A DNA stretch of 64,000 nucleotides from an uncultured Elusimicrobia bacterium. GTDB lineage: Bacteria > Elusimicrobiota > Elusimicrobia > UBA1565 > UBA9628. Positions 6,329-55,977 of the stretch are shown piece by piece. The stretch spans positions 2,070,110 through 2,134,109 of the forward strand of contig CBDIQC010000001.1 of the NCBI GenBank assembly GCA_965283875.1, read 5' to 3'. The notes below the pieces were generated by a model, which worked only from the letters and a program-made list of their open reading frames with translations, had not been told where the DNA came from and made no database searches. Both the position numbers and the translations under genes were made by a program. How positions within the stretch are numbered: position 1 is the first letter of the stretch; each line of letters starts with the position of its first letter.

Positions 6329-6405
6329 GGCGCGTTCGTCTAGCGGCCTAGGACGCTGCCCTCTCAAGGCAGAGATCACGGGTTCAAATCCCGTACGCGC
6401 CACCA
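6329..6405 (+). tRNA. tRNA-Glu (anticodon CTC), CCA encoded
   Basis: Hand fold: acceptor GGCGCGT/ACGCGCC, D arm GTCT-AGCGGCCTA-GGAC, anticodon arm CTGCC-CTCTCAA-GGCAG, T arm ACGGG-TTCAAAT-CCCGT, discriminator A, CCA at 6403-6405. Confidence 0.9.
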
Positions 6406-6541: not shown

Positions 6542-6799
6542 TTAGGACAGGTGCTTGGAGACGAGCTTCGTCATCTCGAACATGTTGACGACGGACTTGC
6601 CGGCGAACACGGCCTTCAGCGCCGCGTCGGCGTTGATGTTGCGCTTGTTCTTCTTGTCCTGGAGGTTGTTCTTCTTGATGTACGCCCAGAGCTTCTTGAC
6701 GACCTCGGTGCGGGGGAGGGGCTTGGCTCCGACGATCTCGGCGAGCTTGTCCGAGGGGGTGAGGGGCTTCATGAACGCGGCGTTAGCCTTCTTGGCCAT
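6542..6799 (-). CDS. SWIB/MDM2-domain protein
   Basis: Internal ATG (residue 24 of ORF 6542..6868) preceded by AAGGAGAC. LPRTEVVKKLWAYIKKNNLQD...RNINAD..LKAVF.GK..VNMFEMTKLVSKHL is the SWIB signature. Confidence 0.85.
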   Translation of the reverse strand: MAKKANAAFMKPLTPSDKLAEIVGAKPLPRTEVVKKLWAYIKKNNLQDKKNKRNINADAALKAVFAGKSVVNMFEMTKLVSKHLS

Positions 6800-6909
6800 G
6801 TTGATAGTCTCCTTGGGTCCGTTAGTGCGCCGGACATTCCATGGCCGGCGGCAAGCCCATTCAACCACTTTCTCCCTCGGGAATCAAGGATTTCTCCGTC
6901 GGGGGCGCC

Positions 6910-40643: not shown

Positions 40644-40665
40644 ACGGCGGGACGGCGTAAAAAGA

Positions 40666-40691
40666 GGGCCCCGGCCTAGCGGCCGGGGCCC
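40666..40691. terminator. Bidirectional intrinsic terminator
   Basis: Perfect 11-bp GC stem gggccccggcc-tagc-ggccggggccc. T-rich tract follows on the plus strand (cgtctctttct) and TCTTTTT on the minus strand. Confidence 0.7.
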
Positions 40692-40713
40692 CGTCTCTTT
40701 CTGAGAAATATTA

Positions 40714-40781
40714 AGGTGCGAGCGGGATTCGAACCCGCGAATAATGGTTTTGCAGATTGCAACCTTTGATCAATTCGCACC
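40714..40781 (-). tRNA. Degenerate tRNA-like element (Cys-like features), not foldable into a canonical cloverleaf by hand
   Basis: Perfect acceptor pairing GGTGCGA/TCGCACC, canonical T arm GCGGG-TTCGAAT-CCCGC, discriminator T, heptamer CTGCAAA. Only 36 nt lie between the acceptor 5' strand and the T arm, and no 5-bp anticodon stem or D stem forms. Confidence 0.35.
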
Positions 40782-40919
40782 ATCAGCATTAACCAAAAAC
40801 TGCTGATTCATTCTACAAATATTCAGACCGACCCGTTGAGGCCGACATCTCGTCAGTGGGATTTTTTGTCGACTTTGGAGGCGGGTTTGGATGATTTCTC
40901 CGCTGAAATCGAGCTAGCA

Positions 40920-40948
40920 TTGCATGGCTTGAGAATGTATGCTACACT
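40920..40948 (+). promoter_or_regulatory. Promoter TTGCAT-17-(TGc)TACACT, 6 nt before ATG 40955 (leaderless type); head of the metal-efflux supraoperon
   Basis: TTGCAT 40920-40925, 17-nt spacer ending in TGc (extended -10), TACACT 40943-40948, cagccg, ATG. Confidence 0.55.
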
Positions 40949-40954
40949 CAGCCG

Positions 40955-41230
40955 ATGACTTCGCGCCTGCGTTCGTTGCTCTGCGCTCTGGCCCTCTGTG
41001 TTTGGGGGCTGGACATCGGCGTGGACGCCTACGGCCGTTGCGAGGAATCCAAGAGCGTCGCGACCGCGTGTCACGTCTGCGCCTGCGCGAATCATTTCTA
41101 CAATCCGAGCGAGACGGAAAAGTCCTTGCGTATTGATTGTCCCGAACCGCCGTATCCCTCCTACCAGCAGCCGGTCTACTCGCTACTCCTAATCGAGTCG
41201 ATCTTCCAGCCCCCCAAGCTCACCCTCTAG
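40955..41230 (+). CDS. Small exported Cys/His-rich protein (91 aa)
   Basis: Hydrophobic N-terminus LLCALALCVWG. CEESKSVATACHVCACANHF cluster (5 Cys, 2 His in 20 aa). Lies in a locally AT-richer segment and starts at the predicted transcript start. Confidence 0.5.
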   Translation: MTSRLRSLLCALALCVWGLDIGVDAYGRCEESKSVATACHVCACANHFYNPSETEKSLRIDCPEPPYPSYQQPVYSLLLIESIFQPPKLTL

Positions 41231-41341
41231 CGGAAGAGCTTTCCCCCGCGCGATCCGTTCCTGAGCCCTGCCTTGCCGCCTTGTCGCGGCGGCTTTTGCG
41301 CTCAGGCTATCGAACGACTCTTATTGTCGAGTAGGATACTT

Positions 41342-42568
41342 ATGACCCAGCTTATATCGCTTTTCCTCCTGGCGACGGCCCCAGCCGTCGCCGCCGAGCC
41401 CGCATGCCCCGCATTGACGAGCCCGCAATCCGTGCTCGAATGCGTGCTCCGCGCGCATCCTGCCGCGAGGGGATCGGCGGCGCTGCTTTCGCAAGCGGAG
41501 GCGCTCGGAAGCGCGGCCGGACAGCGGCCGAACCCGGAGGCCGCTGGCACGGGGGTCTTCGGCGACTCGCAGGATCAGATCCAGGTCTCGCTCCTCCATA
41601 CATTCGAGACCGGCGGCAAGAGAGGGCGCCGGCTGGATCGCGCGCGCGCGGAAGCGCTGGAGTTGGGCGCCGACGCATTGAGCATCAAGGAGGAGATCGC
41701 CGTAGACACCGTCTCCGACCTCTATCGCCTTCGGCAGATCCGAGAGGAGCTCAAGCTTCTGCAGGAGGCGCTGGATACCTTTGCCCGGATTGCCCGTCAG
41801 CTCCGAGCGCGCCCGCGCCGATCTCCCGAGCAGGAGGTCTCCTTATCGGTCTTCCAGCTCGCCGAGCGCGATTACTCCGTCAAGCGCTCGGCTCTCGATG
41901 GGGAAACTCTCGCTCTCCGAAGAAGGCTCGAACTCGGGTTAGGGGCCCCGCTTCCGGGGTCCGACTCGGTACTTCCCGCCAGGCCTGCCCAGTGGCCCGA
42001 CCCAGGGGCATCCGGCACGCCTGCGGCCCTTCGCGGCTCGTCCGCCCTGCGCGCCGCGGCTTCGTTGGAGGCGGCGCAAGCCGAGCTCGGTTCGGCTCGG
42101 GCGGCGGCTTATCCGGACGTCCAACTCGGACCGAGCGTTCAAAGGCAAAAGAACGGGGCCGGTGAGGGCTCGTCGACCTTGCTTGGGGCGAGTTTTTCTC
42201 TACCGCTTCCTCTTTACCAGCGTAACGCGGGCGGCAAGCGGCTGGCGATCAGGGCGGTTGAGACCGCCGAGGCGAGGTCCGCGGCGGTGACGGCGACTCT
42301 CGGCGCCCAGAGGGACGCGGAACTCGCGCGCTATCGCGCTGCCGTATCAGTGCTGGCCCAGGCCGGCGATACGGAGAAACTCGAGGCCGAGCATGAGAGG
42401 ATGGAGGGGCTCTATGAAAGAGGCGTCATTCCCAGCGCGCTCGTCATCGAGGCGCACCGGCAGATGGTCGACTACACGCGCGACCTCAACGAGCAGGAGT
42501 TGAGCGCCATCCGCGCTCTCTGGACGATCTATGCGATCGAAGGCCGCGTCCTCACGGAGAAACTGTGA
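41342..42568 (+). CDS. czcC: TolC-family outer-membrane efflux protein (CzcC-like)
   Basis: Internal ATG 41342 and a signal peptide. Two-repeat coiled-coil/beta pattern of OMF proteins (NPE...ETGGKRG.R...A; LYQRNAGG) and position upstream of the adaptor and RND genes. Confidence 0.8.
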   Translation: MTQLISLFLLATAPAVAAEPACPALTSPQSVLECVLRAHPAARGSAALLSQAEALGSAAGQRPNPEAAGTGVFGDSQDQIQVSLLHTFETGGKRGRRLDRARAEALELGADALSIKEEIAVDTVSDLYRLRQIREELKLLQEALDTFARIARQLRARPRRSPEQEVSLSVFQLAERDYSVKRSALDGETLALRRRLELGLGAPLPGSDSVLPARPAQWPDPGASGTPAALRGSSALRAAASLEAAQAELGSARAAAYPDVQLGPSVQRQKNGAGEGSSTLLGASFSLPLPLYQRNAGGKRLAIRAVETAEARSAAVTATLGAQRDAELARYRAAVSVLAQAGDTEKLEAEHERMEGLYERGVIPSALVIEAHRQMVDYTRDLNEQELSAIRALWTIYAIEGRVLTEKL

Positions 42569-43119
42569 ACATAATCAAGATCATTCCCATCGCATTGCTC
42601 CTGTTGGGGGCGCCGTCGCAGGCGAGCGACGAGCACAAAGATCATAAGGCGGGCGAGAAGCATGCGGACGATCACGTGAAGAAAGGCGCCTCGGCGAAAG
42701 ACGAGCACGAAGGCGGCGAGGAACATGGAGAGGAGCACGGCGAGGGACACGGGGAAGAAGAGGCCAACCCCAACGTCGGCCCCGGCAAGGGCGTGGAGGC
42801 CTTCGGGCATGAGGGCATGAAGCTCTCGGCGAAGGCGGCGGCGAGCTTGGGCCTCAAGACGTCGCCCATCGCGGTCGCCGGCGGGGGAAAGGTGCCGGCA
42901 TCGGCCCTGGTCTTCTTTCAGGACGAAGTCGGCGTCTATCGCTCGCGCGGGGGCTGGATAAAGCTCGTCGAAGTCGCGCTTGGAGAGCGGACAAAGCGCG
43001 ACGCCGTCGTGCGCTCCAAGGACCTTAAGCCGGGCGACCAGCTGGTCGTCGCGGGAGCCGCCGCGATCCGGGTCATCGAACTCGACCTGACCAGCGGCGA
43101 CGTGGGCCACGGGCACTGA
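42565..43119 (+). CDS. His/Glu-rich, unusually short (184 aa) periplasmic adaptor-like protein
   Basis: GTG overlaps the czcC stop (GTGA). Signal peptide, then a DEHKDHKAGEKHADDH...EHGEEHGEGHGEE tract. The remainder resembles only the first strand (LSAKAAASLGLKTSPI) and last beta-barrel/MP part (VPASALVFFQDEVGVYR...LKPGDQLVVAGAAAI) of HlyD/CzcB adaptors. Confidence 0.7.
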   Translation: MNIIKIIPIALLLLGAPSQASDEHKDHKAGEKHADDHVKKGASAKDEHEGGEEHGEEHGEGHGEEEANPNVGPGKGVEAFGHEGMKLSAKAAASLGLKTSPIAVAGGGKVPASALVFFQDEVGVYRSRGGWIKLVEVALGERTKRDAVVRSKDLKPGDQLVVAGAAAIRVIELDLTSGDVGHGH

Positions 43120-43129
43120 GGACAACTCC

Positions 43130-46100
43130 ATGATAAACAAGATCATTCATTTCTCCGTCTACAACCGCGGCGTCGTGCTTCTCTTCACGGTGCTGGCGGC
43201 CCTCGCGGGCTGGTCGGCCTTCGAGAACCTTCCCATCGACGCCGTGCCGGACATCACCAACGTCCAGGTCCAGGTGAACTCTCAAGTGGACGGCCTGGCT
43301 CCCGAGGAGATCGAGCGCGGCGTGACCTTCCCTATCGAGGCCGCCATGAGCGGCATCGCGGGCGTCGAGCAGCGGCATCGGCGGCGATGGGTGGGGATGG
43401 TGACGGTAATCTTCGATGATGCACCGTGGCCATTTACCGGGCGCGTCAGATGGTCTCGGAGCGCCTGCAGAACGCCTCAGGAAGCCTCCCCGCGGGCGTC
43501 TTGCCTCGTCTCGGTCCCGTCAGCACGGGCCTGGGCGAGATCTTCTACTACACGCTCGAGGCCGAGAAGCCCGCCGAGGGCGAGGAGCGGATAAAGCAGC
43601 TGATGGAGCTTCGAGCGCTTCATGACTGGACCGTCAAGCCACGCCTGTTGACCGTCAAGGGCGTCGCCGAGGTCAACGTCATCGGCGGCTACGAGAAGCA
43701 GTACCACGTCCAGCCCCGCCCCGCGGCTCTCGCGCGCTACGGGCTGCGCTTCTCAGACCTCAAAGAAGCCCTGGAGCGGACCAACCGCAACGCGGGAGGC
43801 GGCTACGTGCAGCAGACCGGCGAGCAGTTCCTCGTCCAGGCGGTCGGGCTCTTGAAGACGCCCGAGGAGATCCGCCGCGTCCCGATCAAGTCTCTCGAGA
43901 CGCTCAAGACGGTCACGATCGGTGACGTGGCCGACGTCGGCCTCGCCACGGAACTGCGCACCGGCGCGGCACTCGTGCGCGGCCGCGAGGCGATTCTCGG
44001 CAGCACGCTCATGCTCATGGGCGAGAACAGCCGCTCGGTCTCCCTGCGTGTGGCCAAGCGGCTCGCCGAGATCGGCAAGAACCTGCCGCCCGGCTACAAG
44101 CTCGAGACCGTCTACGATCGCTCCGTGCTGGTCAACGCCACGCTCGGGACGGTCGAGCACAACCTCGTGACGGGAGCCGCGCTCGTCATCGTGATCCTGC
44201 TGCTTCTGCTCGGCAACATCCGTGCCGCCCTGATCACGGCCGTGACGATCCCGCTGACCTTGCTCATGACCTTCATCGTCATGCGCTGGTTCGGCATCTC
44301 AGGCAACCTCATGAGCCTGGGCGCGCTCGACTTCGGCATCATCATCGACGGCGCGGTGATCGTCTTGGATAACTGCGTCCGCATGGTGCATCTGCGAGCC
44401 AAGCAGCTCGGCCGCGGGCTCACGGGGCCGGAGGTCCAGAAGACGGTCTACGAGGCGGCGGTCGAGATTCGGACGGCGGCGGGCTTCGGCGAGCTCATCA
44501 TCGTCGTCGTCTTCCTGCCCATCTTCGCGCTGGTCGGCATCGAGGGCAAGATGTTCGTGCCGATGGCGGGTACGTTCTGCGCGGCGGTGCTGTGCGCGTT
44601 GATCCTCTCGTTCACGACGGCGCCGGCGCTGGCGAGCCTCCTGCTCAAGGGCGACACGGACGACAAGGAGCCCTGGCTCATGCGAAAGGTGCGGGCCGGA
44701 TACGCGCCGATCCTCTCGGGGGCCGTGACCCGTCGGAAATGGACCGTCGGAGTCGGGCTGTTCGCCGTGGTCCTCGGCGGCATCCTCTACACTCGGCTGG
44801 GCGGGGAGTTCCTTCCTCAGCTCAACGAGGGTTCGTTTACCTTCCAGTTCGTGCGTCCCGTCAATATCAGCCTGGATCAGTCCATCGCCTTCCAGGAGCG
44901 CTCCGAGAAGCTGCTCGGAGAGTTCCCGGAGGTCGACGTCGTCTTCTCGCGCATGGGCACGGCTGAGATCGCCACCGATCCCATGGGCGTCAACATCTCC
45001 GACACCTACGTCATGCTCAAGGACAAGAAGCAGTGGCCGCTCGTCGACGGCCGGAGGCGGACCAAGGACGAACTGGGAGCCGCTATGAGCAAGCGTCTGG
45101 CCGAGGAGATCCCGGGCCAGCGGGCACTGGCAAGCCAGCCCATCGAGATGCGCTTCAACGAGCTTCTTGAGGGCACGAGAGCCGACATCGCCATCAAGGT
45201 CTTCGGCGACGATCTCGACGAGCTCACGAAGATCACCAAGGAGATCTCGGAGATCGTCGGCAAGGTTCCCGGGGCAGGAGAAGTCGAGCCGGAACTGCGG
45301 GGCAAATCGCCGCTTCTACGCGTGGTGCCCCGCGAGGGCGTCCTGCGTACGCTCGGCGTCTCGACCATCGAGGTGCTCGAGACAATCGGGATCGCGCTGG
45401 GCGGGGAGGAGGCCGGCCAGATATACGAGGGCGTGCGGCGCTTTCCGATCATCGTGCGCCTGAGCCCGGCCGACCGCACGGACCTGGACTCCATCCGGAG
45501 GCTCCCCGTGGGCATCGGCGCCAACGCCACGATCCCGCTCACGGAGGCGGCGGAGGTCTCCTTCACCGAGGCCTACGGCTCGGTCACGCGCGAGGACGCC
45601 AGACGCAGGGCCGCAGTTCTCGTCAACCTTGCCGGTCGGGACACGGAGAGCTTCGTCGGGGAAGCCCAAGCCGCCGTTGAGGCCAAGGTCAAGCTGCCGC
45701 CGGGCTACTACGTCGAATGGGGAGGCAACTTCAAGAACCTCCAGAAGGCGCGAGCCCGCCTGATGCTGCTGACTCCCGTGGCGTTGGTCCTGGTCCTCAT
45801 GATGATCTATGCCGCCTTCAAGAACGTCTACGAGACTTTGCTGATCTTCTCCTGCGTGCCGCTGGCGCTCGTGGGCGGAGTCCTCGGCCTCATGCTCAAC
45901 GGCTTGCCTTTCAGCATCTCGGCCGGCGTGGGCTTCATCGCGCTGACCGGCATCGCGGTGCTCAACGGCGTCGTGCTCGTGCACTACTTCAACGACCTTC
46001 GCGCTGCGGAGGGACTCTCGGGTTGGAAGCTGGTCGAGAAGGGCACGCTTATCCGGCTGCGCCCGGTCCTTATGACGGCGCTCGTCGAGATCTTCGGCTT

Positions 46101-46266
46101 CCTGCCGATGATGCTCGCGACGGGCCTGGGCGCGGAGGTGCAGCGCCCCCTGGCCTCGGTCGTTATCGGCGGCGTCATCTCGTCGACGACGCTGACGCTG
46201 CTCGTGCTTCCCACGCTCTATCTGATGTTCGAGCGCTACATGACGGCCCACGAGGTGGAACTATGA
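43130..46266 (+). pseudogene. czcA: Heavy-metal-efflux RND pump CzcA-like, frame broken near 43415-43425
   Basis: ORF 43130..43594 gives LPIDAVPDITNVQVQV...VTVIFDD, then nonsense. ORF 43426..46266 continues IYRARQMVSERLQ...GPVSTGLGEI...SLGALDFGIIIDGAV... to the end, colinear with C. metallidurans CzcA as I recall it. Confidence 0.8.
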
Positions 46267-46589
46267 AAGAGGTAAAAGCGCTCATCCGGCCGTCCAAGCT
46301 CGATGGGGTTCTCGAGGCGCTCCAGCGCATCAGGGACCTGCCCGGCTGCATCGTATCGCACGTGCACGGCTACGGCCGTAGCACCGGCCGCGGCACGAAC
46401 ACCCCGCTCGAGTCCGCCGACTTCGTCAAGCTCGAGATCGTGGTCGGCGAGCGCCTGCTCCAAAACGTGCTTGCCGCAATCCAGGAAAACGCCCACACGG
46501 GAAACCCCGGAGACGGAAAGATATTCGTCATCGAGTGTTCCGACGCGGTGCGGATCAGGACCGGCAAGAGCGGAAAGGCGGCGTTATGA
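46263..46589 (+). CDS. P-II (GlnB-like) family protein with a shortened T-loop
   Basis: ATG overlaps the czcA stop (ATGA). MKEVKALIRPSKLDGV.EAL...GYGR....VKLEIVV...GNPGDGKIFV...AVRIRTG follows the P-II fold pattern. There is no Tyr in the T-loop. Confidence 0.8.
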   Translation: MKEVKALIRPSKLDGVLEALQRIRDLPGCIVSHVHGYGRSTGRGTNTPLESADFVKLEIVVGERLLQNVLAAIQENAHTGNPGDGKIFVIECSDAVRIRTGKSGKAAL

Positions 46590-46592
46590 CTA

Positions 46593-46880
46593 ATGCAGAC
46601 CAAGGCATTTAAGCTTCTTCGCGCCGACTGGCAACTGCTGCGGCTCATCTTTTCTGCTGAGTTGCGGGCAAAGGCGATGGGATATGTCGAGCACATGCGA
46701 AAAGACGACGTGGACGTAACGGATAATAGCCAGCGCCGCGAGTGGATTCGCACGCATCGCGCCGAAATAAGCCAGGCGCTGCCTGGCGTCTATTCGCGCC
46801 ACATCCATTCCCGCAATGATCCATGCCCGTGCGGAAGTAAAAAGAAATACAAGCGATGCTGCGGAACGGAGTGCTCATGA
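46593..46880 (+). CDS. SEC-C motif (CPCGSxKKYKxCCG) domain protein
   Basis: C-terminal NDPCPCGSKKKYKRCCG. Locally lower GC. Confidence 0.75.
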   Translation: MQTKAFKLLRADWQLLRLIFSAELRAKAMGYVEHMRKDDVDVTDNSQRREWIRTHRAEISQALPGVYSRHIHSRNDPCPCGSKKKYKRCCGTECS

Positions 46881-47647
46881 AGGAACCGTTGCAATCCCAG
46901 ATCACCGTCGTCGGCCTCGAACTCTTGAGCCGGGTCGTGCTGGCCGCCTCGGCCGCGCTCGTTGCGCTGCTCCCGCTGGCCGCCTCGGCTCAATCCGCGG
47001 AGCCGGAGGTCCAAGTCCGTCGCGTTTCCGCGAACGAACATTCACCCGTCGCCGAAGACGAGCCGTCCGTCATGGGAGCTGACGAGTTTTACCTGCTGCG
47101 CGGCAAGGTCCCTTTCGTGGATGAGGTCGCCGTCATTCGGATCTCTTTCAAGGGCAAATGGCACAAGTCGGCCGACTATCTTGCGCGGGAGAAAGCGGCC
47201 TCCTTGGGCGCTAACGGACTCGTCCTCGTGGAGTCCGTCGGCCGCGAGGATCTGCCAGGCGCGATCAGGAGCTACCGGGCCTTCAGGCTGAGCGACTCCT
47301 TCGGGAGAGCCGTCTATATGAAGCCGGCGGAGGAGGGGCCTCGCGCCAAGCCGACCGAGGCGGCCGCGAGCCCCGCCGAGGCGCCCAAGCCCGTTGATGT
47401 CGCGGCGGCCTCGCCGCCGGCCCCGCGCCGCGAGCATCGTCATTTCGAGTGGGTCTGGGCGCATGACGCCTCCGTGCTCTCCCATCGCCTGGGCTTCGAC
47501 GCGGCCAGCGCGAGCCGGGGCGAGCGGGAGCAGTTGAAGCTGTACGTCCGGGAGAACTTCCCGGCCGCGGGATACGGAAAGCTGGCCAAGGCGCTGGCCG
47601 CGAGCCAAAAGGTCGTGCTGGATTTCGTGAAGGGGAAGGTCGAATGA
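46877..47647 (+). CDS. Hypothetical exported protein, paralog 1
   Basis: ATG 46877 overlaps the SEC-C stop (ATGA). Shares W..SA..LA.EKAA.LGAN.L..V.S....RSY.AFR and a C-terminal V.E.F......KLA......V..D block with the next ORF. Confidence 0.5.
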   Translation: MKEPLQSQITVVGLELLSRVVLAASAALVALLPLAASAQSAEPEVQVRRVSANEHSPVAEDEPSVMGADEFYLLRGKVPFVDEVAVIRISFKGKWHKSADYLAREKAASLGANGLVLVESVGREDLPGAIRSYRAFRLSDSFGRAVYMKPAEEGPRAKPTEAAASPAEAPKPVDVAAASPPAPRREHRHFEWVWAHDASVLSHRLGFDAASASRGEREQLKLYVRENFPAAGYGKLAKALAASQKVVLDFVKGKVE

Positions 47648-48342
47648 GGAGCGCGGCCCTCCTAGGCGTCCTGCTCTGCGCCGCCTCCCGGGCGCGGGGC
47701 CAGTACCCGCCCGAGGTGGAGGTCGTCCCGATCCTCAAGGAGAAGCGTCCTCATCTGCTCGCCTCGCAGGTGGCCGTCGCCGACTGCTACGCGAGCGGCC
47801 TGTCCGGCGCTCAGAGGGAGGAGGTGGCGTCGGTGAAGGTCACCGTCCGCGGCCCCTGGGAACGGAGCGCGCGGCATCTGGCCGCCGAGAAGGCCGCGGA
47901 GCTCGGGGCCAACTGCCTTCTCGTCGTGTCCTCCTACGGGAAGGACAACGCCGAGTATCCCGTTCACCGTTCCTACAAGGCGTTCCGGGTCACAGTGCCC
48001 TACGGCCCGTGGCGCGTCCCGGCGTCGGCCGAGAGCCTCGCGTCCGCTATGGCCGCCGCGGCGATGCCCGCCTTCCCGATGCCGAAGCTCAAGGCGCCGG
48101 TCATCGAGAAAAAGCCCGCCGTCGCGCACGGCGACCACCTCAGCCGCGCCATGGGCAAGGCCGTCTACTTCCACGAGGTCGTGTTGGACTTCTCCCGGAC
48201 CGACCCGGCGACCTGGGCGGACGTAGCCCAAGACGTGCGCGAGTATTTCGGCGAGGCGGAGGCGGAAAAGCTGGCCCGGCTAGTCGAGGCGGGCAAGGCG
48301 GTCCGGATCGACCTGAGGACGGGCACGGTGTCGGGGCTATGA
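47644..48342 (+). CDS. Hypothetical exported protein, paralog 2
   Basis: 4-nt overlap upstream. Signal peptide; similarity to 46877..47647 described there. Confidence 0.5.
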   Translation: MRSAALLGVLLCAASRARGQYPPEVEVVPILKEKRPHLLASQVAVADCYASGLSGAQREEVASVKVTVRGPWERSARHLAAEKAAELGANCLLVVSSYGKDNAEYPVHRSYKAFRVTVPYGPWRVPASAESLASAMAAAAMPAFPMPKLKAPVIEKKPAVAHGDHLSRAMGKAVYFHEVVLDFSRTDPATWADVAQDVREYFGEAEAEKLARLVEAGKAVRIDLRTGTVSGL

Positions 48343-48803
48343 ACCGGCATAGAACGGGGCGAGCGGCCGCGACGACCGGCGTGCTGTGCCTGACGCTGCT
48401 CGGGTGCGATGTCGCGCCGCGCATCAAAGAGGATAAAGCGTGGGGCGATCCTCAGACTCGTTGGCGGCGATCGAGAAACGGCTTCGTCGTTGTTTTCGAG
48501 GCGATCCCCCGGACGCCGGTTCGGGGGCAGGAAACTGATGTTCTGATCTCCATTCATGACGAGTCCAAGGAGCCTCCCCAGCCGGTCTTGGATGCGAAGA
48601 TCGTGGGGATCGTCGTGATGCCGAGCATGCCGGGGCATGTTCGCGAACTGGAGTTGAAATCCGGCCTGGGAGCGGCCGCGCCGGGTATCTACCGGGCGCG
48701 CTCGAACTTCGACACCAAAGGGGAATGGCTGGCGAAATTGCTGATACTGCTGTCCTCCGGCGAGAAGATAAGGAACGTCGAGTTCCCGATCGAGGTCCGC
48801 TGA
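48339..48803 (+). CDS. Lipoprotein with a YtkA/FixH-like Ig-fold domain (candidate)
   Basis: ATGA overlap. Lipobox LLGC. LISIHDES...PVLDAKIVGIVVMPSMPGH...APGIYRARSNFDTKGEWL resembles YtkA-like metal-associated domains. Confidence 0.5.
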   Translation: MNRHRTGRAAATTGVLCLTLLGCDVAPRIKEDKAWGDPQTRWRRSRNGFVVVFEAIPRTPVRGQETDVLISIHDESKEPPQPVLDAKIVGIVVMPSMPGHVRELELKSGLGAAAPGIYRARSNFDTKGEWLAKLLILLSSGEKIRNVEFPIEVR

Positions 48804-49054
48804 TGGCTGCGGAAGGCATGGACCGGGGCGCTTTGGCGAGGATAGAGGTCGTCTATCCCGACGGGAGAACCAAGATCCTCCCTCTGGATTTCCCCAGCGT
48901 TTTCAATAGACCGCAATGGCTCGGAATCAACATGTGCGAATGCGGCGCAAGCATCCGGTACGCCTGGGATGAGGCGCATACTCGTCGAGAGGCCGTCTGT
49001 CCGGCATGCGGCATTGTTTTCGTCGTCAAGAAGCCCGTTCAGGAGAAATCATGA
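48803..49054 (+). CDS. Small zinc-ribbon-like protein (83 aa)
   Basis: TGATG overlap. CECG...(18 aa)...CPACG pairs of cysteines. Confidence 0.5.
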   Translation: MAAEGMDRGALARIEVVYPDGRTKILPLDFPSVFNRPQWLGINMCECGASIRYAWDEAHTRREAVCPACGIVFVVKKPVQEKS

Positions 49055-50223
49055 GCGATCGTCACGTGCTGAGCTCGTTCTTTCCTCTTCGCTACGAGTG
49101 TCCCGTCTGGGCGACCAGCGCCGCCCTTACGGCGGGGTTCTTCGCGCTCGAGGCGGCGCTCCACGGCCGGCGCCCGGGGGCGGGCGAAGCGCCGTTCTGG
49201 GATGCCGTCAGTATCCTGGGCTACGCCGTCTACCTCGTTCCGCTGGTTTTGAGCGAGACGAAGACGGAAGCCGGGGCCCTACGGCGACTGCTCATGGCCT
49301 TTACGGCTCTTCTTCTCGTCGGATTCGCTCTAGCATTGCTTCCCTTGGAGCAGCTCGGGCTCGACGCCGCGCCATGCTTGCAGGTCGCGGGAATGACGCT
49401 CGTCGTCTTCTTCTGCGCACGCCGCGGCCAGGCTGTGGCCAGCGCCGCCGGACTCGCGCTGGCCGCGACGACGGCCGTGGCGATGGCGGCGACGCAGCGG
49501 CATGCTTTCGCCGATTTTGCGGCAGGCACCGCTTTGGGCTGGGCCGCGGCGGCCTTCGCCGATTGGCGGGACCTGGCGTTCCTACAGAGGGACGATCCCT
49601 GGAGCGCGTTGCGTCACGAGTTCGGGGAACTGCGTAACCTGCTGGCAGGCAACCGCCGCGCGCTCTGGGACAGCTCCTACGCCTGCGGCCACTGGGACTT
49701 CCTGGACTCGATGGAGCAGCGCCCGCGGCACTACGCGATCGCGGGCTTCCTGGCCGACCGGCTCCCGCGCGAAAGCGGGCGCGTCCTGGACGCGGGCTGC
49801 GGGCTGGCCACTCTCTATCCGCTCCTGCGCGGGCGCGCGACCGAGTACGTCGGTCTCGACCTTTCCGCCGAGGCCCTCAAGAAAGCGGCAGCGGCCTACG
49901 GGGCGGAGCCCGGCGTCAGTTTCGCGCACGAGGCGTTCGAGAAGTTCAAGGACCGCGGGTTCGACGCGCTCGTGCTCAACGAGGTGCTCTATTATTATCC
50001 TCTGTCGGAGATCGAAAGTGTCTTCTCCCACGCCCTTTCGCGTCTGCGTCCGGGCGGCGCGCTCGTCGTCTCCATGAACCGAAACTTCAAGGCGCGGCTG
50101 ATCTGGCGCAGGCTGGAAGGGATAGCGCCGGCCGAGCAGGGCATCCGCGTCCACAACCTGCGGACCGGCAGCTACTGGACGGTCAAGGTCTACCGTCGTC
50201 CGGAAACATCGGAAGCATCTTAA
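49051..50223 (+). CDS. Fusion of a polytopic membrane domain and a class I SAM-dependent methyltransferase
   Basis: AGGAG SD; ATGA overlap. About 190 aa with 5-6 hydrophobic spans, then VLDAGCGLATL (motif I), GLDLS and ALVLNEVLYY. Confidence 0.7.
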   Translation: MSDRHVLSSFFPLRYECPVWATSAALTAGFFALEAALHGRRPGAGEAPFWDAVSILGYAVYLVPLVLSETKTEAGALRRLLMAFTALLLVGFALALLPLEQLGLDAAPCLQVAGMTLVVFFCARRGQAVASAAGLALAATTAVAMAATQRHAFADFAAGTALGWAAAAFADWRDLAFLQRDDPWSALRHEFGELRNLLAGNRRALWDSSYACGHWDFLDSMEQRPRHYAIAGFLADRLPRESGRVLDAGCGLATLYPLLRGRATEYVGLDLSAEALKKAAAAYGAEPGVSFAHEAFEKFKDRGFDALVLNEVLYYYPLSEIESVFSHALSRLRPGGALVVSMNRNFKARLIWRRLEGIAPAEQGIRVHNLRTGSYWTVKVYRRPETSEAS

Positions 50224-50233
50224 GGGAGTCCCC

Positions 50234-52384
50234 ATGAAGCGATCATCGTTGAAGCTCCACATCACCGGCATGGACTGCGCCGAGGAAGTCTCCGTCTTGC
50301 GTCGCGAGATCGGACCGCTAGTGGGGGGCGAAGACAAGCTGTCCTTCGACCTGTTGAGCGGAACGATGACGGTGGCGGCGACGTTCGGCGACAAAGAGGC
50401 TCTCATCGCGAAGGTCGCGAAGACGGGCATGCGCGCGCATCCCGCCGATGAAGAGCCCGGCTCGGAGGAGCACGGGACCAACCGCGGGCGCGGCGCCCTG
50501 ACGCTCGTCAGCGGCTTGGCGACCGCCTCCGCCTTTGCCGCGCATGCCTGGCTGGCCGGAGACATAGGGGCGGCCGTCGGCACCGAGGGCCTGGGGCAGG
50601 TCCACGCGTTGCCCGCGATCACGAAGGTCCTTTACAGCGTCGCCGTCGCCGCCGGCGTCTGGACGGTACTTCCCAAGGCCTGGTTCGCCCTCAAGAGCCG
50701 CCGGCCGGACATGAACCTACTGATGACCATCGCCGTCGCCGGCGCCGTGGGGATCGGCGAGTGGTTCGAGGCGGCCACGGTGTCGTTCCTGTTCTCCCTA
50801 TCGCTTCTCCTGGAGTCGTGGAGCATCGCGCGAGCGCGCCGCGCCGTCGCCGCGCTCATGAGCTTGACCCCCGAAACGGCGCGGGTGCGGCTTCCCGACG
50901 GAAGCTGGAAGGAGGTCCCTTCGAAAGAGGCGGTTCCGGGAACGACGTTCTTGGTCAAGCCCGGCGAGCGGATTGCCCTGGACGGGACGGTCGTCCAGGG
51001 AGCGAGCGGGGTCAATCAAGCTCCCATCACCGGGGAGAGCATGCCGGTCTCGAAGGAGCCCGGCGCGACCGTCTTCGCCGGCACCATCAACGGCAACGGC
51101 TCTCTCGAGGTCCGCTCGACCAAGGCGGCGGGGGACACGACCCTCGCCCACATCATCAAAATGGTGGGCGCGGCTCAGGGGCAGCGCGCGCCTTCCGAGC
51201 AGTGGGTGGAGAAGTTCGCTCGCGTCTATACGCCCGTGGTCTTCGTCGCTGCGTTGTTGATGCTCCTGCCGCCGATGCTCTCCGACGCCTCCTGGGAGGC
51301 CTGGATCTACCGCTCGCTGACTTTGCTCGTGATCGGCTGCCCCTGCGCGCTGGTGATTTCGACGCCGGTCAGCGTCGTGGCCGGGCTTGCCGCGGCAGCG
51401 AAGAACGGCGTGCTTGTGAAGGGCGGTATGTATCTCGAACTGCCGGCCAGGCTGCGCGCGATAGCGGTCGATAAGACGGGGACGTTGACGGAGGGCCGTC
51501 CCGCCGTCGTCGAAGTAGTCGCGCTCAATGGCCACACTGAGACGGAGCTGCTTTCGATCGCCGCCGCCCTCGAATCCCATAGCGAACACCCGCTCGCAAA
51601 GGCCGTCTTGGACTATGCGCGCGCCAAGAGCGTCTCGCCGGGCACGGTCTCCTCGTTCAAGATCATTCCCGGCAAAGGCGCCTCGGGGATCGTCGGAGGC
51701 AAGCCCTATTGGATCGGCTCGCATCGTTATCTTGAGGAAAAGCGGGAGGAAACGCAGGATGTCCACGCGAAGCTGGAAGGCCTCGCTCGGGCGGGACGCT
51801 CGGTCATAGTCATAGGGGACGACGCGCACATCTGCGGTATGCTCGCCGTGGCGGACAAACTGCGTGCCGACGCGGCCGACTCCGTCGCAAGGATCAAGCA
51901 GGCGGGCGTCGAGCGCATCGTCATGCTGACCGGAGACAACCGCGCGACGGCTGACGCCGTGGCCGCGCAGACCGGCGTGGATGATGTCCGCGCCGAGCTG
52001 CTGCCGGAGGACAAGGTCAAGGCCGTCGAGGAACTGGTCGCGCGCTATCAGACCGTCGCGATGCTCGGCGACGGGGTCAACGACGCCCCCGCGATGGCCC
52101 GGGCGTCTCTTGGAATCGCCATGGGAGCGGCGGGAAGCGACGCGGCCATAGAGACCGCGGACGTGGCGCTCATGTCCGACGATCTGGGGAAGATCGCCTG
52201 GCTCATCGAGCATTCCCGAAGAGTCCTCCGCGTGATCCGGCAAAACGTGTCGGCTTCGCTCATCGTCAAGGCGATTTTCGTCGTACTGACCCTGCTCGGA
52301 CGCGCGAGCCTATGGAGCGCCATCGCGGCGGATATGGGCGTGTCGCTATTGGTCATCTTCAACGCCCTGCGCCTGCTACGATGA
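50234..52384 (+). CDS. P1B-type heavy-metal (Zn/Cd/Pb-type) translocating ATPase
   Basis: N-terminal HMA-like domain (ITGMDCAEEV), CPC in TM6 (GCPCALVISTP), DKTGTLT, HP (SEHPLA), GDGVNDAP. Confidence 0.9.
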   Translation: MKRSSLKLHITGMDCAEEVSVLRREIGPLVGGEDKLSFDLLSGTMTVAATFGDKEALIAKVAKTGMRAHPADEEPGSEEHGTNRGRGALTLVSGLATASAFAAHAWLAGDIGAAVGTEGLGQVHALPAITKVLYSVAVAAGVWTVLPKAWFALKSRRPDMNLLMTIAVAGAVGIGEWFEAATVSFLFSLSLLLESWSIARARRAVAALMSLTPETARVRLPDGSWKEVPSKEAVPGTTFLVKPGERIALDGTVVQGASGVNQAPITGESMPVSKEPGATVFAGTINGNGSLEVRSTKAAGDTTLAHIIKMVGAAQGQRAPSEQWVEKFARVYTPVVFVAALLMLLPPMLSDASWEAWIYRSLTLLVIGCPCALVISTPVSVVAGLAAAAKNGVLVKGGMYLELPARLRAIAVDKTGTLTEGRPAVVEVVALNGHTETELLSIAAALESHSEHPLAKAVLDYARAKSVSPGTVSSFKIIPGKGASGIVGGKPYWIGSHRYLEEKREETQDVHAKLEGLARAGRSVIVIGDDAHICGMLAVADKLRADAADSVARIKQAGVERIVMLTGDNRATADAVAAQTGVDDVRAELLPEDKVKAVEELVARYQTVAMLGDGVNDAPAMARASLGIAMGAAGSDAAIETADVALMSDDLGKIAWLIEHSRRVLRVIRQNVSASLIVKAIFVVLTLLGRASLWSAIAADMGVSLLVIFNALRLLR

Positions 52385-52415: not shown

Positions 52416-53575
52416 CTAGGAACGTGGGCCCAGGGCGCCGCGAGTCTTGGCCAACAAGGCCTTGGCCAGGAAGGGCAGCGGTCTGACGAGCCGCACGGCG
52501 GCCTCGGCGGCGTCGGGACGCATCAGCACGGCTTGGAGCGCGCGCCCCGCGCGGAGCCGCACGGAGAAGCGTCCGCGCCATAGTTCGTCCCAGCGCCCCG
52601 GCAGCTCCTCGCCGTCGACGCGCTCCATGAGATCAGCGAGCAGCACGGCCGACTCCAGGGCCATCGCCTGCCCGTCGCCGCATAGGGGCGCGATCATGCC
52701 GGCGGCGTCTCCGATAAAGAGAATGGAGCCCGAGCTCGGCGCCTTCGCCGTGAACGCGAGCTGCGCCGCGGCGAGCGGCTCGCCGTCCGGCCGCAAGGCC
52801 TCGATCCGTCCGCGCAGGCTGGGACTGAGGCGGGCCAGGAAGGCGGACCCCTCGCGGCGGACGGCCGCTCCGGCGGACGAGAATACGCGCTCCTCGGCCA
52901 AGAGGCATACGTTCACGGCGCCTCCGTCGACCACGCTCACGCCGCAGTAGCCTCCGCTGAAGAGATGGATCTCGACCACGCCGCGAAGCTCCGCGGCGAC
53001 CGCGTCTGCTCCGGGCAGGAAAAAGTGGCTGCGTTTGTAGCCCGCGAAAGGCGAGCGCGGGCGCGGGGCGCCGAGCCCGCTGCTGCGTCCGTAGGCCGCG
53101 ACGACTCGATTGGCGAGCAGGACGCTCTTCGCGCGCGTGCCGTCGGGCATGGTCCGCGCGATCTCAAGCCGCACGCCGCCGTCGGCTTGATCCATGCGCG
53201 TGACGGCCGCGCCCTCGAAGCCCCTCGCTCCGCTGCGCTGCGCGTGACGGAACAGCGCCTCGTCGAGCGCGAGCCGGCTGATGCCCAGCGCCGGCGCGCC
53301 GAGGGCGATCTCGATCCTCCGCCCGGAGGGGGAGAAGAAGCGGGCGCCCGTGATCGCCGCGGGGCGCAGCGCGCTCACCGCGTCGAGGCACCCGATCCGC
53401 TCGGATGCGACTGCGCCTCCATGGATAAAAACTCGCCGCAGAGTTTTCGGCGCGGGAAGCGGTCGCGCTCGAGAAGCACCGGCCGCCGGCCCGCTCGCGC
53501 GAGCAGCGCGGCCAGCGCGCTCCCGGCCGGGCCGCCGCCGACGATCGCCACGGAGCAGCGATCGGGAAGGCTCAA
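52416..53575 (-). pseudogene. FAD-dependent oxidoreductase (geranylgeranyl-reductase/aromatic hydroxylase type), frame broken near 53378-53400
   Basis: The N-terminal piece (ORF 53375..53650) has [21 protein letters not shown]...LLER and KLCGEF. The C-terminal piece (ORF 52416..53378) has FIGDAAGMIAPLCGDGQ. TTG 53575 overlaps the upstream stop. Confidence 0.7.
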
Positions 53576-54270
53576 CGCGGCACCGTCATCTGCCAGCGGA
53601 AGGCCCAGCGCCAGCGGATGTCCGGCTTGGGCGTCCCGGCCCGGCGGCACAGGTTCTCGAGCTCGGCCCTCCGGAAGCCGCGCAGCACGGACAGCGGCGC
53701 GTCATGTCGGATGAGGCGGTCGCGCGAGAGCGCGGCCGTGAGCGCCTTGATTCCATGATACGCCAGCGGGTGGCGATGGAGATCGTTGACGGCGACGCCG
53801 AGCCGGGCCCGCGCGTGCATCGTCTTGAGCGCGCGCGCCGCCAGGTCTCCGGGGCAATGGTGGAGCATGAGGCCCGCGTGGACGACGTCGTACTCGTCGC
53901 CCGAGTCGGGCGCGAAGAGGTCGTCCTGCGCGAAGGTTAGCCCGGGCCGGTGCCGCTCCGAGGCCAGGCGCACCGTCGCCGCGGACAGGTCGATGCCGTG
54001 CACTTCGGCCGCGATGCCCCGCCTCCCGGCCCAGTCCAGCATAACGGAGGCCGCCTCCCCGTCGCCGCAGCCCGCGTCGAGGATCCTCAGGCGCTTGGTC
54101 CCGGGCGGGGTCAGGAGGTCCAGGGCGCCGAGCGTGGCGGCGTGCCCGCCGAGGCGGCGGTTGATGAACGCGAGCTCCCGGAAGGTCGAGCGCAGCTCCT
54201 CCACGGACGCGCCGTCGGCGTCCATCAGCTCCAGCTCGTCGCTGCGCCGGCGGAAATCAACGGGCGTCAT
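53572..54270 (-). CDS. Class I SAM-dependent methyltransferase
   Basis: ATG 54270 overlaps the PKS stop (ATGA). ILDAGCGDG (motif I), [16 protein letters not shown]. Confidence 0.8.
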
Positions 54271-55394
54271 CGCGGCGGCAGGAAGAGCGCGCCTTCCATC
54301 GTCAGCCCGGGACCGAAGCCGAGCGCGGCGAGCGGCCCCGCGCCGCCGCGCGCGAGCTCGCGCTCGAGCACGAAGAAGATGGTCGCGCTCGACATGTTGC
54401 CGCAGTCGGCCAGCACCCCGCGCGAGGAGCGCGTCGCATCGTCGTCGAGGCCGAGCGCGTCGGCGAGCGCCGCGACGATGCGGCGCCCTCCTGGATGCGG
54501 CGCCCAACGCGAGACCTCGCCGCGCGAGAGCCCCGCGTGCGCCAGAAGCTCGGCGGCGAAGGCGGGCGCGTGCGCCCGGATCGTCTCGGGCACGCGGCGG
54601 TCGAGGCTCATCTCGAAGCCCGTGTCGCCGATGCGCCACGACATCTGACCTTGGCTGCCCGGCGCCGCGCGCCCGTGCATGACGGCCAGGTCGGCCAAGC
54701 CTCCGCGGCGTGCGCCGGGAGCCGCGAAGACGGCGGCGGCTGCCCCGTCGGCGAACAGGCTGTTCGCGACGAGGAACTCCGCCAGGAGGCGCTTCTGGAA
54801 ATGAAGAGAGCACAGCTCGACGGACACGACGAGCACGACGGCCTCCGGGTCGGCCGCGACGAAGGCTCGCGCCAGCCTCATGGCGCTGAAGCCGGCGTAG
54901 CATCCCATGAAGCCGACTTGCGCGCGCTGGACGTCGTCGCGTAGCCCAAGGCGGGCGATCAGCAGGAGGTCCGGGCCCGGAGCGAAGAAGCCCGTGCAGG
55001 TCGTGAGTATGAGGTGAGTGACCTCGCCCGGCGCGAAGCCGGAGTTCGCGAGGGCCGAGCGGGCCGCGGACTCGGCGAGAGGAGGGCTCTCGCGCTCGTA
55101 CGCCTCCATGCGCCGCGCGGTGCTCGGGAACGGCTCCAGGGCGCGGTCTTTCGGGTAGAACTCGAAGCGGGCGGGATCGTTCGTCGCGTAATCCGTCAGG
55201 ACGCTGTGTCGCCGCTCGATGCCGGACGAGGAGTAGAGCCGCTCGATGAACGGCTCCGCGCGCGCCCCTTCCTCGCCGAAGGACGCGCGCGCCGTCGCGG
55301 TCATGAAGCGCATGACCGCCTGCTGGGAGGACGAGGTCGCGGGCAGAGCCGTGCCCAGGCCATAGAGGCGCGCGCGGGAAGTCGGGGGAGACAT
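54267..55394 (-). CDS. Type III polyketide synthase (chalcone/stilbene synthase superfamily)
   Basis: Internal ATG 55394. Active-site contexts GCYAG (Cys), HPGG (His), GNMSSAT (Asn). About 375 aa. Confidence 0.85.
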   Translation of the reverse strand: MSPPTSRARLYGLGTALPATSSSQQAVMRFMTATARASFGEEGARAEPFIERLYSSSGIERRHSVLTDYATNDPARFEFYPKDRALEPFPSTARRMEAYERESPPLAESAARSALANSGFAPGEVTHLILTTCTGFFAPGPDLLLIARLGLRDDVQRAQVGFMGCYAGFSAMRLARAFVAADPEAVVLVVSVELCSLHFQKRLLAEFLVANSLFADGAAAAVFAAPGARRGGLADLAVMHGRAAPGSQGQMSWRIGDTGFEMSLDRRVPETIRAHAPAFAAELLAHAGLSRGEVSRWAPHPGGRRIVAALADALGLDDDATRSSRGVLADCGNMSSATIFFVLERELARGGAGPLAALGFGPGLTMEGALFLPPR

Positions 55395-55529
55395 GCTATA
55401 GGATACGACTTGTCGCCGGCCAGGTGCAGAAGAATGCCCCTGTAGAACCATGGCGTTCTCCGAGACGAAGGGAGAGCCCTGCGACTTCCTGATTCCGCCT
55501 ACGAGACGGAAGCCGTCGTTGCCGACTCC

Positions 55530-55580
55530 TCGACAATGGTCGCCGGACCAGTTACAATGTATGCATGTTTGCGCATACAT
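55530..55580 (+). promoter_or_regulatory. Promoter TCGACA-17-TACAAT with an overlapping inverted repeat ATGTATGC-N8-GCATACAT (candidate ArsR-family operator)
   Basis: TCGACA 55530-55535, TACAAT 55553-55558. Perfect 8-bp arms at 55557-55564 and 55573-55580, just upstream of the ArsR-family gene. Confidence 0.5.
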
Positions 55581-55596
55581 GCTATCGAGGCGCTCG

Positions 55597-55977
55597 ATGA
55601 AGCTCTTCGCCGAGGCGTTCCAGTCCCTTGCCGATGAGACGCGTCTGAGGATCTTGCGGCTACTGACCGATGGCGGCAAGGCGCTGTGCGTGTGCGAACT
55701 GGTCGACGCCCTCGAAGTGCCGCAGCACAACGTGTCGAGGCACCTCGCCGTCCTAAGACGTTCCGGGCTTCTGACGGAAAAGAAGGAGGGCCGCTGGGTC
55801 TACTACGACGTCGTTCGAAACCCGGACGCCTTCCTTCGCCACCTCCTCACCGCGGCGCGAGCCGTCGCCGACGCCGCCCTGGAAAAGGACAAGCGCGAGC
55901 TCGCCAAGCGCTTCAAGATCCGCGAGGGCGGCAAATGCCTCAAGGGCATCCAGAAGGCCGGGCTCTCCTCCCGCTGA
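55597..55977 (+). CDS. ArsR/SmtB-family metalloregulator
   Basis: LADETRLRILRLL, metal-site-like ALCVCELVDAL, wing HNVSRHLAVLRRSGLL...GRWVYY. GAGG lies 6 nt upstream of ATG 55597 (ATG 55579 is also possible). Confidence 0.85.
   Translation: MKLFAEAFQSLADETRLRILRLLTDGGKALCVCELVDALEVPQHNVSRHLAVLRRSGLLTEKKEGRWVYYDVVRNPDAFLRHLLTAARAVADAALEKDKRELAKRFKIREGGKCLKGIQKAGLSSR

Follow-up and report, generated by a model that had tools for sequence, protein, structure and literature searches.

A probable divalent-metal efflux operon of Elusimicrobiota: conserved core, cassettes and mosaic origin

What might twelve closely packed genes be doing together when they include both a pump of the heavy-metal efflux resistance-nodulation-division (HME-RND) class and a P1B-type ATPase, with a string of unfamiliar small genes in between? 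The question is raised by a stretch of 64,000 nucleotides (nt) from an uncultured Elusimicrobia bacterium (assembly GCA_965283875.1, contig CBDIQC010000001.1, positions 2,070,110 to 2,134,109 of the forward strand), here called the window, in which twelve plus-strand open reading frames (ORFs) run from 40955 to the ATPase stop at 52384, just as an initial annotation of this DNA had it. We give these ORFs the working names g01 to g12, in gene order, and we think it probable that together they form an Elusimicrobiota-specific operon that carries divalent metals (likely Zn/Cd, perhaps Co/Pb) out through all layers of the envelope and that recombination put together from a core and a set of cassettes. 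The earlier proposal, that an HME-RND system and a P1B ATPase share one metal-efflux operon, is supported, and the intervening genes do indeed match no characterised czc, cad, znt or cus component. What did not hold is the picture of a six-gene block welded between the two transporters: g06 has no homologue in the nineteen related loci, some of those loci do without g09 and g10, and g11 is a cassette whose other occurrences are in copper clusters. The block resolves into a conserved core pair (g07/g08), optional cassettes and one orphan insertion.

A conserved core with two insertion slots

The related loci, which carry the handles L001-L019 and L041, comprise nineteen (L001-L019) plus one distant locus, and all the named ones are metagenome-assembled genomes of Elusimicrobiota. 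From L009 to L019 the gene order is constant, namely a small protein like g01, an OEP-family outer-membrane factor (OMF), a CzcA-type pump, a PII protein, g07, g08 and a ZntA-like ATPase, and it is this series (g01, g02, g04, g05, g07, g08 and g12 in the window) that we would regard as the core. Missing from the minimal relatives (L009-L012 and L019) are g06 and g09-g11. Every ORF with a comparator has a ratio of non-synonymous to synonymous substitution (dN/dS) of 0.07-0.40, and those ORFs are therefore genuine genes under purifying selection.

The 946-amino-acid (aa) part of g04 scores 1057 bits against TIGR00914 (cut-off 701) and its L017 orthologue, an intact ORF of 1046 aa, 1192 bits. In the Nies classification, DFG..DGA..VEN in the fourth transmembrane helix (TM4) denotes the divalent-cation type of HME-RND pump; the TM4 motif of g04, DFGIIIDGAVIVLDN, has the DFG..DGA pattern with VEN replaced by LDN, and so carries the divalent-cation signature, the copper-type pump of L002 reading AVG..VD..IV..EN for comparison. 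At the far end of the operon g12, annotated as a CPC-type P1B ATPase, lives up to that name, with a score above the Cd-type cut-off (Table 1), a score just below the cut-off of the Cu model TIGR01511 (396.1 against 397), CPC in GCPCALV (TM4), the TM5 Lys in IVKAIF and the TM6 Asp in ADMG. The HMA-like motif near its N-terminus, GMDCAEE, is degenerate and has one Cys where a CxxC would be expected, and there is no HMA Pfam match at E <= 0.001.

The remaining single core genes are quickly described. g01 has no match in Pfam or NCBIfam and is recognised by C..ACHxCxC..H and a C-terminal YSLLL..S(I/L)F.PP; in L009-L012, L014 and L016-L018 a homologue is found upstream of the gene for the OMF, and its dN/dS against L017 is 0.16. 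The CzcC-like OMF of the initial annotation is borne out by g02, which exceeds the PF02321 cut-off with a match spanning two stretches, is 91% identical to its L017 counterpart (dN/dS 0.08) and has an alternative TTG start at 41273. The P-II-like protein likewise stands, g05 being above the PF00543 cut-off, and it comes directly after the pump, an RND-then-PII order kept in all Zn-type loci. PII genes adjoining czc genes are already known as PII-NG, for example in the PII-NG-czcABC operon of Geobacter sulfurreducens (GSU2134-2137), where a PII gene is likewise co-operonic with a Czc-type RND system (PMC7726332). Here, in contrast, the PII gene comes after the pump rather than before it and is always followed by g07/g08 and the P1B ATPase, and it is by its genomic linkage to a czc-type pump that g05 is likened to PII-NG.

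The absent adaptor (discussed below) and the g07/g08 pair are in our view the most novel leads. The annotation of two paralogous exported proteins was right (E 7e-15), and in every Zn-type locus recovered they lie between the PII gene and the ZntA-like ATPase. Orthologues of g07 (dN/dS 0.30) occur in L009-L018 at 43-68% identity, L019 having an adjacent 238-aa gene, and the 4-nt overlap of the two genes is kept in every locus whose coordinates were read (L009-L014, L017 and L019). Judged by sequence searches, this appears to be a tiny new family whose named source organisms are all Elusimicrobiota: it accounts for 41 of 5.8 billion clusters made at 90% identity, a full hidden Markov model search of 1.84 billion representatives at 50% identity yields 20 clusters, and 185,579 species genomes contain four loci, all in Elusimicrobiota. 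Its members share an invariant core, W...LAxEKAxxLGAN...G...YxAxR, and a type I signal peptide ending in A-x-A and followed by an almost invariant Gln.

Neither g07 nor g08 has a Pfam match, and it is the AlphaFold2 (AF2) model of g08 (pLDDT 72.8 overall, 80-90 in two domains) that offers a clue. An N-domain (residues 20-120) is followed by a Pro/Ala linker and a small alpha/beta C-domain, and Foldseek relates the N-domain to FvfA of Francisella (5evg, E 6e-5, TM 0.61), RcsF and YdgH (DUF1471), a predicted fold of RcsF/FvfA/DUF1471 type. DUF1471 proteins resemble RcsF, and one of them, BhsA/ComC, is copper-induced and makes the outer membrane less permeable to copper (PMC12096828). The N-domain fold is what g08 has in common with these envelope stress proteins, a likeness in fold only, whereas g07/g08 have no Pfam DUF1471 or RcsF match and no lipobox, g08 has the extra linker and C-terminal domain, and the two form a paralogous pair within an efflux operon. 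An adaptor-like fold was considered for the pair and rejected, since the AF2 model and Foldseek results for g08 show no beta-barrel, lipoyl or long hairpin domains. In L041 (7943-10756) a distant member of the family (32% identical) overlaps the stop codon of a sensor kinase gene by 4 nt; the kinase belongs to a pair of OmpR-type response regulator and HAMP sensor kinase, with RND pump genes close by on the opposite strand.

The core has two insertion slots, PII-g07 and g08-ATPase, and the locus in this way shows how resistance operons are assembled, with a fixed core into which other genes are placed. The nearest DNA relatives also differ by segment (Table 1), for which reason the operon reads as a recombinational mosaic, and its region has a GC content of 65-66% against 70-72% in the flanks. 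The initial annotation had made recurrence of the block beside metal transporters in other genomes its own test, and the outcome is divided: g07/g08 recur in every Zn-type locus and g11 beside such genes in six of seven, but g06 in none of the nineteen related loci.

Table 1. Genes, control elements and mosaic segments of the locus (window coordinates)
Feature	Position	Strand	Basis or nearest relative	DNA identity
Bidirectional terminator-like hairpin, GC-rich	40665-40692	.	12-pair stem, 11 GC pairs, T-run on both strands	
5' control region, conserved	40917-40954	+	TTGCAT (40920), 17-nt spacer, TG-n-TACACT (40943-40948)	
g01, exported Cys/His-rich protein, 91 aa	40955-41230	+	First gene of operon, conserved	
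g02, OEP/TolC-family outer-membrane factor	41342-42568	+	PF02321, 51.3 bits (cut-off 22)	
g03, exported mini-adaptor (putative), 184 aa	42565-43119	+	Sub-threshold TIGR01730 match	
g04, CzcA-type HME-RND pump	43130-46266	+	Interrupted at ~43373-43425	
g05, PII-family protein, 108 aa	46263-46589	+	PF00543, 75 bits (cut-off 25)	
g06, cytoplasmic SEC-C-motif (CxC..CC) protein, 95 aa	46593-46880	+	PF02810, 38.5 bits (cut-off 20.4)	
g07, exported protein, first of paralogous pair	46877-47647	+	Paralogy with g08	
g08, exported protein, second of paralogous pair	47644-48342	+	AF2 and Foldseek	
g09, YtkA-like lipoprotein	48339-48803	+	LLGC lipobox, MPSMPGH motif	
g10, cytoplasmic Cys4 protein, zinc-ribbon type (CEC ... 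CPAC), 83 aa	48803-49054	+	Cys conservation	
g11, six-helix PAP2-like (divergent) membrane domain plus cytoplasmic NodS-like class I SAM methyltransferase	49051-50223	+	Pfam, AF2, Foldseek	
g12, ZntA/CadA-type (P1B-2) heavy-metal ATPase	50234-52384	+	TIGR01512, 494.6 (cut-off 313.5)	
Mosaic segment	40905-46582		L017	87%
Mosaic segment	46583-46977		None	
Mosaic segment	46978-49014		L017	79%
Mosaic segment	48913-50213		L008	91%
Mosaic segment, ATPase g12			Every relative compared	About 69%
Mosaic segment, downstream type III PKS operon			L002 and L015	81%

Genes outside the core

Four genes fill the slots in the window, and a fifth, g03, lies between the OMF and pump genes. The SEC-C motif protein was correctly named, g06 being above the PF02810 cut-off with the match at residues 74-91, and it also has a partial match to TIGR04102. 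Its GC content is the lowest of all (0.556; 0.65 at third codon positions), and it would seem to be a window-specific low-GC insertion. In L015 (4692-6266), L016 (7671-9251) and L018 (6924-9285) the place of g06, between PII gene and g07, is taken by a thioredoxin-lipoprotein/DsbB/DsbA cassette, which in L011 and L012 follows the ATPase instead.

g09 and g10 behave as optional cassettes among the loci compared: L013/14, L017 and L018 have both, whereas L009-L012, L015, L016 and L019 have neither. g09 in addition has homologues in L003 and L006-L008. The label of YtkA/FixH-like lipoprotein fits g09 only in part, for the window protein stays below the PF13115 cut-off (E 3.6e-4, 21.6 bits against 25.9) but an L006 homologue 40% identical to it exceeds that same cut-off at 30.7 bits. 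YtkA/CtaK of Bacillus subtilis is a copper-trafficking lipoprotein (PMC13344008). g09 is likewise a lipoprotein, has a Met/His motif and carries a putative domain of YtkA type, although it lies in resistance clusters and not in cytochrome-oxidase assembly clusters and, as just said, scores below the family cut-off. Of the annotated Cys4 zinc-ribbon protein, g10, the four Cys are confirmed and are kept in homologues from five other loci; its Pfam matches are weak zinc-ribbon matches only, and its dN/dS is 0.17.

The annotated fusion of a polytopic membrane domain with an S-adenosylmethionine (SAM) methyltransferase is well founded. The C-terminal domain of g11 matches Methyltransf_11/12/23/25 above the Pfam cut-offs, which places it among the class I SAM methyltransferases, and the AF2 model (pLDDT 79) has six membrane helices in addition to this domain. 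Foldseek superposes the methyltransferase domain on the N-methyltransferase NodS (3ofk, TM 0.80), the whole-model result being dominated by that domain. Invariant in the membrane domain are E34, H38, P108-C109-L110 and H151, with D155 nearly so. We set these against the criteria for PAP2 lipid phosphatases such as PgpB and LpxE/LpxF, namely motifs C1 (KxxxxxxRP), C2 (PSGH) and C3 (SRxxxxxHxxxD) and a Pfam score above cut-off; g11 resembles those enzymes in its six helices, a C2-like P-C-L and a C3-like R-H151-x3-D155-x3-G. A profile of the membrane domain gave only a chance-level cellulose synthase match among PDB sequences, and an exact-sequence lookup of g11 gave no match. We know of no characterised precedent for a fusion of PAP2 and methyltransferase domains, and a literature search on such fusions returned nothing relevant.

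There are 38 homologues of g11, and in six of the seven distinct loci recovered they stand in metal clusters, mostly of copper type, which contain OEP, HMBD adaptors, CusA-like pumps, HMBD multicopper oxidases, DUF2231, SnoaL_3 and YHS/HMBD ATPases; the seventh, L008 (10.4 kb), shows none for a transporter. In L003 and L006/7 the g11 gene adjoins genes like g07/g08 and like g09. Such recurrence of a PAP2-like/methyltransferase fusion in copper and zinc clusters hints at envelope remodelling in metal defence. L004/L005 (10001-12338) carry a tandem pair of g11-type genes, with 36% identity between the two, placed after a cluster of OEP, HMBD adaptor, RND pump, DUF2231 and SnoaL_3. In the representative library, protein P0083 (630 aa) joins a g11-like PAP2-like/methyltransferase protein to a g07/g08-like domain by a signal-peptide-like helix; this may be a real fusion or else a read-through in gene calling.

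This leaves g03, which had been called an adaptor, a name that the protein does not sustain. Its parts are a signal peptide, a stretch rich in His, Glu and Lys, and some 75 aa resembling the C-terminus of RND adaptors, and its match to the RND adaptor model TIGR01730 (RND_mfp) is far below threshold (E 1.6e-5, 24 bits against 94.9) and confined to positions 254-314 of 322. It has no match in Pfam or among PDB sequences, BLASTP against a locus adaptor was not significant, and no lipoyl or hairpin domain is detectable, so a canonical RND adaptor was rejected. Among the related loci a homologue was found only in L017, at 73% identity with a dN/dS of 0.16, which marks g03 as a real gene. A 16-nt direct repeat, ATAAnCAAGATCATTC (94% identical), stands right at the beginning of g03 (42571-42586) and again of g04 (43133-43148), and because of it the N-terminal peptides of their products, NIIKIIP and INKIIH, are alike.

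How might the operon work, and what speaks against it?

What the data show is which genes are present and to which families they belong, that the core is conserved, that the cassettes come and go, that the locus is a mosaic and that its genes are under purifying selection. The metal specificity and all of the accessory roles that follow are what we infer. In the two-stage relay that we propose, g12 would move cytoplasmic metal to the periplasm, from where g04 together with g02 would expel it across the outer membrane, and the PII protein g05 would act on the cytoplasmic side as a regulator of energy or metal state, by analogy with PII-NG and GlnK. The pair g07/g08 is probably located at the outer membrane or in the periplasm, where it would lower metal entry or sense envelope or metal stress, and is probably not a channel-forming adaptor; the Cys/His protein g01 and the His-rich g03 probably capture metal in the periplasm and offer it to the pump. 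Among the cassettes, g09 would traffic metal as a YtkA-type lipoprotein, g10, a Cys4 protein of the cytoplasm, would bind metal and likewise traffic it, and g11 would be an enzyme that modifies envelope lipid or some other membrane-bound molecule under metal stress, with g06 perhaps a recently acquired small Zn-binding protein of uncertain relevance.

A relay from cytoplasm to periplasm to outside is established in Cupriavidus metallidurans, as two-stage export of Zn, Cd and Co. With CzcCBA and ZntA/CadA of that organism the present locus shares a CzcA-family pump with a DFG..DGA..EN-type TM4, an OMF and a CPC P1B-2 ATPase; it differs in that pump and ATPase stand in one operon, that there is no CzcB-type adaptor and no czcRS, czcD, czcN or czcI here, and that g01, g07 and g08 are fixed extras in the core. 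In CusCFBA it is CusF that passes metal to CusB and then CusA, and the small periplasmic metal-handling proteins proposed here would likewise feed an HME-RND pump, although g01, g07 and g08 have no similarity to CusF in sequence or fold. Our literature search on metal resistance in Elusimicrobia returned nothing relevant.

Several results weigh against this reading or parts of it. g06 has no homologue in L001-L019 (L019 being checked at the DNA level), and a metagenome scan gave SEC-C motif-level matches only, with no full-length relative. g11 is found elsewhere with copper rather than zinc systems, and the PAP2 assignment of its membrane domain is sub-threshold: PF01569 is detected over the C2-C3 region in 12 of 13 family members, always below threshold (best E 6e-4), motif C1 is missing, and the C2-like motif, P-C-L-(Q/L/N/H), has no conserved His. 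The His motifs of the g07/g08 members from Zn operons are not conserved in the wider family, which weakens a metal-chaperone role for the pair. In L009-L014 no adaptor-family Pfam match lies within 10 kb on either side, the genomes beyond not having been searched. A sigma-70 consensus scan calls no site and does not pick out the promoter annotated at 40920-40948, although that element is conserved in L017. Finally, g04 is frameshifted in this genome, and the RND arm may be inactive here.

This last point leads to the alternative that survives best, namely that the RND arm is a recent pseudogene and the operon is functionally reduced in this organism to the ATPase plus accessories. An HME-RND pump should be a single uninterrupted ORF of about 1040-1060 aa, which the window g04 is not: codons 1-97 (43130-43420) and the other 946 (43426-46266) lie in different frames, so the annotated CzcA-like pump is secure as to family but not as one ORF. 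A patch of about 55 nt is scrambled relative to the intact L017 gene, with a length difference that is not a multiple of three, and it takes the place of a conserved RS..FGLSQ segment and shifts the frame. At 43347-43390 the start of this patch near-duplicates the preceding 22 nt (AGCGGCATCGCGGGCG... / AGCGGCATCGGCGGCG...), which suggests a local template switch or an assembly artefact. Against a pseudogene, the stretch of 946 codons after the break stays open, with 96% identity to L017 and a dN/dS of 0.07, so that inactivation must be very recent or else the break is an assembly or sequencing error, and the complete related genome of L018 does show many obvious frameshift errors. We therefore treat a dead RND arm as a genuine but minority possibility, and continue with the pump as a working part of the proposed relay.

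Might the genes between the transporters instead be unrelated passengers of metal-island recombination, with g06 and g09-g11 contributing nothing to Zn/Cd efflux? The mosaic itself invites the idea, with g01-g05 and g07-g10 closest to L017 at different identities, g10-g11 closest to L008 and g12 about equally distant from every relative compared, as do the unique low-GC g06, the Dsb/thioredoxin cassette in the PII-g07 slot of three other loci and the minimal relatives that do without g06 and g09-g11; the tight spacing would then merely reflect compact operon insertion. Yet the recurring cassettes are always in metal-resistance contexts where the context is visible, g09, g10 and g11 are under purifying selection, and both the P0083 fusion of g11 with g07/g08 and the adjacency in L003 link those genes functionally. 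The idea is in any case inapplicable to g07/g08, which belong to the core, and for the cassettes we find it rather doubtful, preferring the view that they take part in metal defence.

Another reading concerns g11 alone and makes it a periplasm-facing metal sensor rather than a lipid-modifying enzyme, a conserved Glu/His/Cys/His/Asp cluster on the outer face of its membrane domain binding Cu or Zn and thereby controlling the methyltransferase. The five residues concerned (E34, H38, C109, H151 and D155) are invariant in the family, D155 nearly so, they fall near the periplasmic ends of helices in the AF2 helix map (a topology inferred by taking the methyltransferase as cytoplasmic), and the gene is frequently associated with metal clusters. 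On the other side, the H-x3-D-x3-G-x3-G helix and the P-C-L match motifs C3 and C2 of PAP2, to which 12 of 13 members show weak similarity, the methyltransferase has ordinary small-molecule relatives such as NodS and UbiG, and sensor-methyltransferases of such a type have no precedent known to us. A sensor is accordingly unlikely in our estimation, and a membrane enzyme is the role we keep for g11.

There remains the adaptor. On the usual view an RND system for metal efflux requires a complete adaptor in the periplasm, and the absence of a canonical one from the locus, to connect pump and OMF, counts against the proposed relay. This is what makes a set of operons from an uncultured phylum worth attention, having no full adaptor gene at the locus and always the exported pair of an undescribed family: if g07/g08 or the mini-adaptor g03 helped to assemble the pump or to hand over metal, they would widen the range of architectures known for tripartite pumps. 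Atypical adaptors that lack domains do exist, such as the hairpin-less BesA (PMC8277102), although compared with CusCFBA and BesA g03 keeps only the ~75-aa adaptor-like C-terminus plus a His-rich tail. That g07/g08, with g03 where present, are a new periplasmic adaptor that replaces the membrane-fusion protein and links the CzcA-type pump to the OMF has in its favour the BesA precedent, the constant overlap of the pair in these operons, the lack of adaptor matches around L009-L014 when the same pipeline flags HMBD/Beta-barrel_RND/CzcB_C adaptors in copper-type loci, and, in L016 and L018, an interval from g01 to the pump that has room for an OMF gene only, but it is most unlikely given a g08 model made of an RcsF/DUF1471-like domain and a small alpha/beta domain, family members with no adjacent pump (beside g11 in copper clusters, or after a two-component system) and the chance that an adaptor is encoded elsewhere in these genomes. 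The broader idea that g07/g08 (plus g03 here) form a new periplasmic component coupling pump, OMF and ZntA-type ATPase into one relay without a canonical adaptor seems to us just as improbable, and a protective or stress-sensing role is the one we would favour for the pair.

Junctions, boundaries and neighbouring genes

The twelve genes are presumably co-transcribed. The overlaps quoted earlier are all present, GTGA at 42565, ATGA at 46263, 46877, 47644, 48339 and 49051, and TGATG at 48803, but they number seven of the eleven junctions rather than eight and measure 1-4 nt. Elsewhere the gaps are 42 or 111 nt for g01-g02, depending on the choice of g02 start, 10 nt for g03-g04, 3 nt for g05-g06 and 10 nt for g11-g12, and Shine-Dalgarno-like GGAG/GAGG motifs precede most starts. 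Overlaps of start and stop codons are frequent in other parts of the window too, and coupling alone is thus unexceptional.

At the 5' end, the hairpin in Table 1 closes an upstream vWA gene and marks the boundary of the operon region. The TTGCAT-17-TG-n-TACACT element is kept in L017, exactly where upstream homology to that locus ends, and as the g01 ATG lies only 7 nt downstream of TACACT, the g01 mRNA may be leaderless. No direct repeats were found on looking for them at the flanks of the island, and a search of 38-56 kb with Rfam gave no family at gathering score. Just upstream of the operon, within a spacer of 46% GC, a tRNA-like sequence on the minus strand (40714-40781) spans the full model at 22.7 bits against a gathering score of 29; ARAGORN makes no tRNA call there, and the sequence may be a decayed tRNA at an old integration site.

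At the 3' end, a convergent gene ends 31 nt past the ATPase stop. It belongs to an operon of type III polyketide synthase (PKS), methyltransferase and FAD-dependent oxidoreductase (52416-55730, minus strand), a trio of alkylresorcinol/alkylquinone type that also adjoins metal clusters in L001, L002, L004/5, L009/10 and L015.

Further away in the window, a minus-strand gene at 6542-6868 encodes a 108-aa SWIB/MDM2 domain protein (E 1e-30), a domain that to our knowledge is uncommon in bacteria, and near it lies tRNA-Glu (6329-6405), the sole tRNA that ARAGORN calls in the window. A three-gene operon of CsgG-like, DUF4810 and GNA1162-like lipoprotein genes (4029-5784) comes after a gene for a 1092-aa DUF4139/DUF4140 protein (719-3997), and at 59740-61653 on the minus strand a 637-aa protein fuses a cytochrome c domain to an FTR1-type iron permease.

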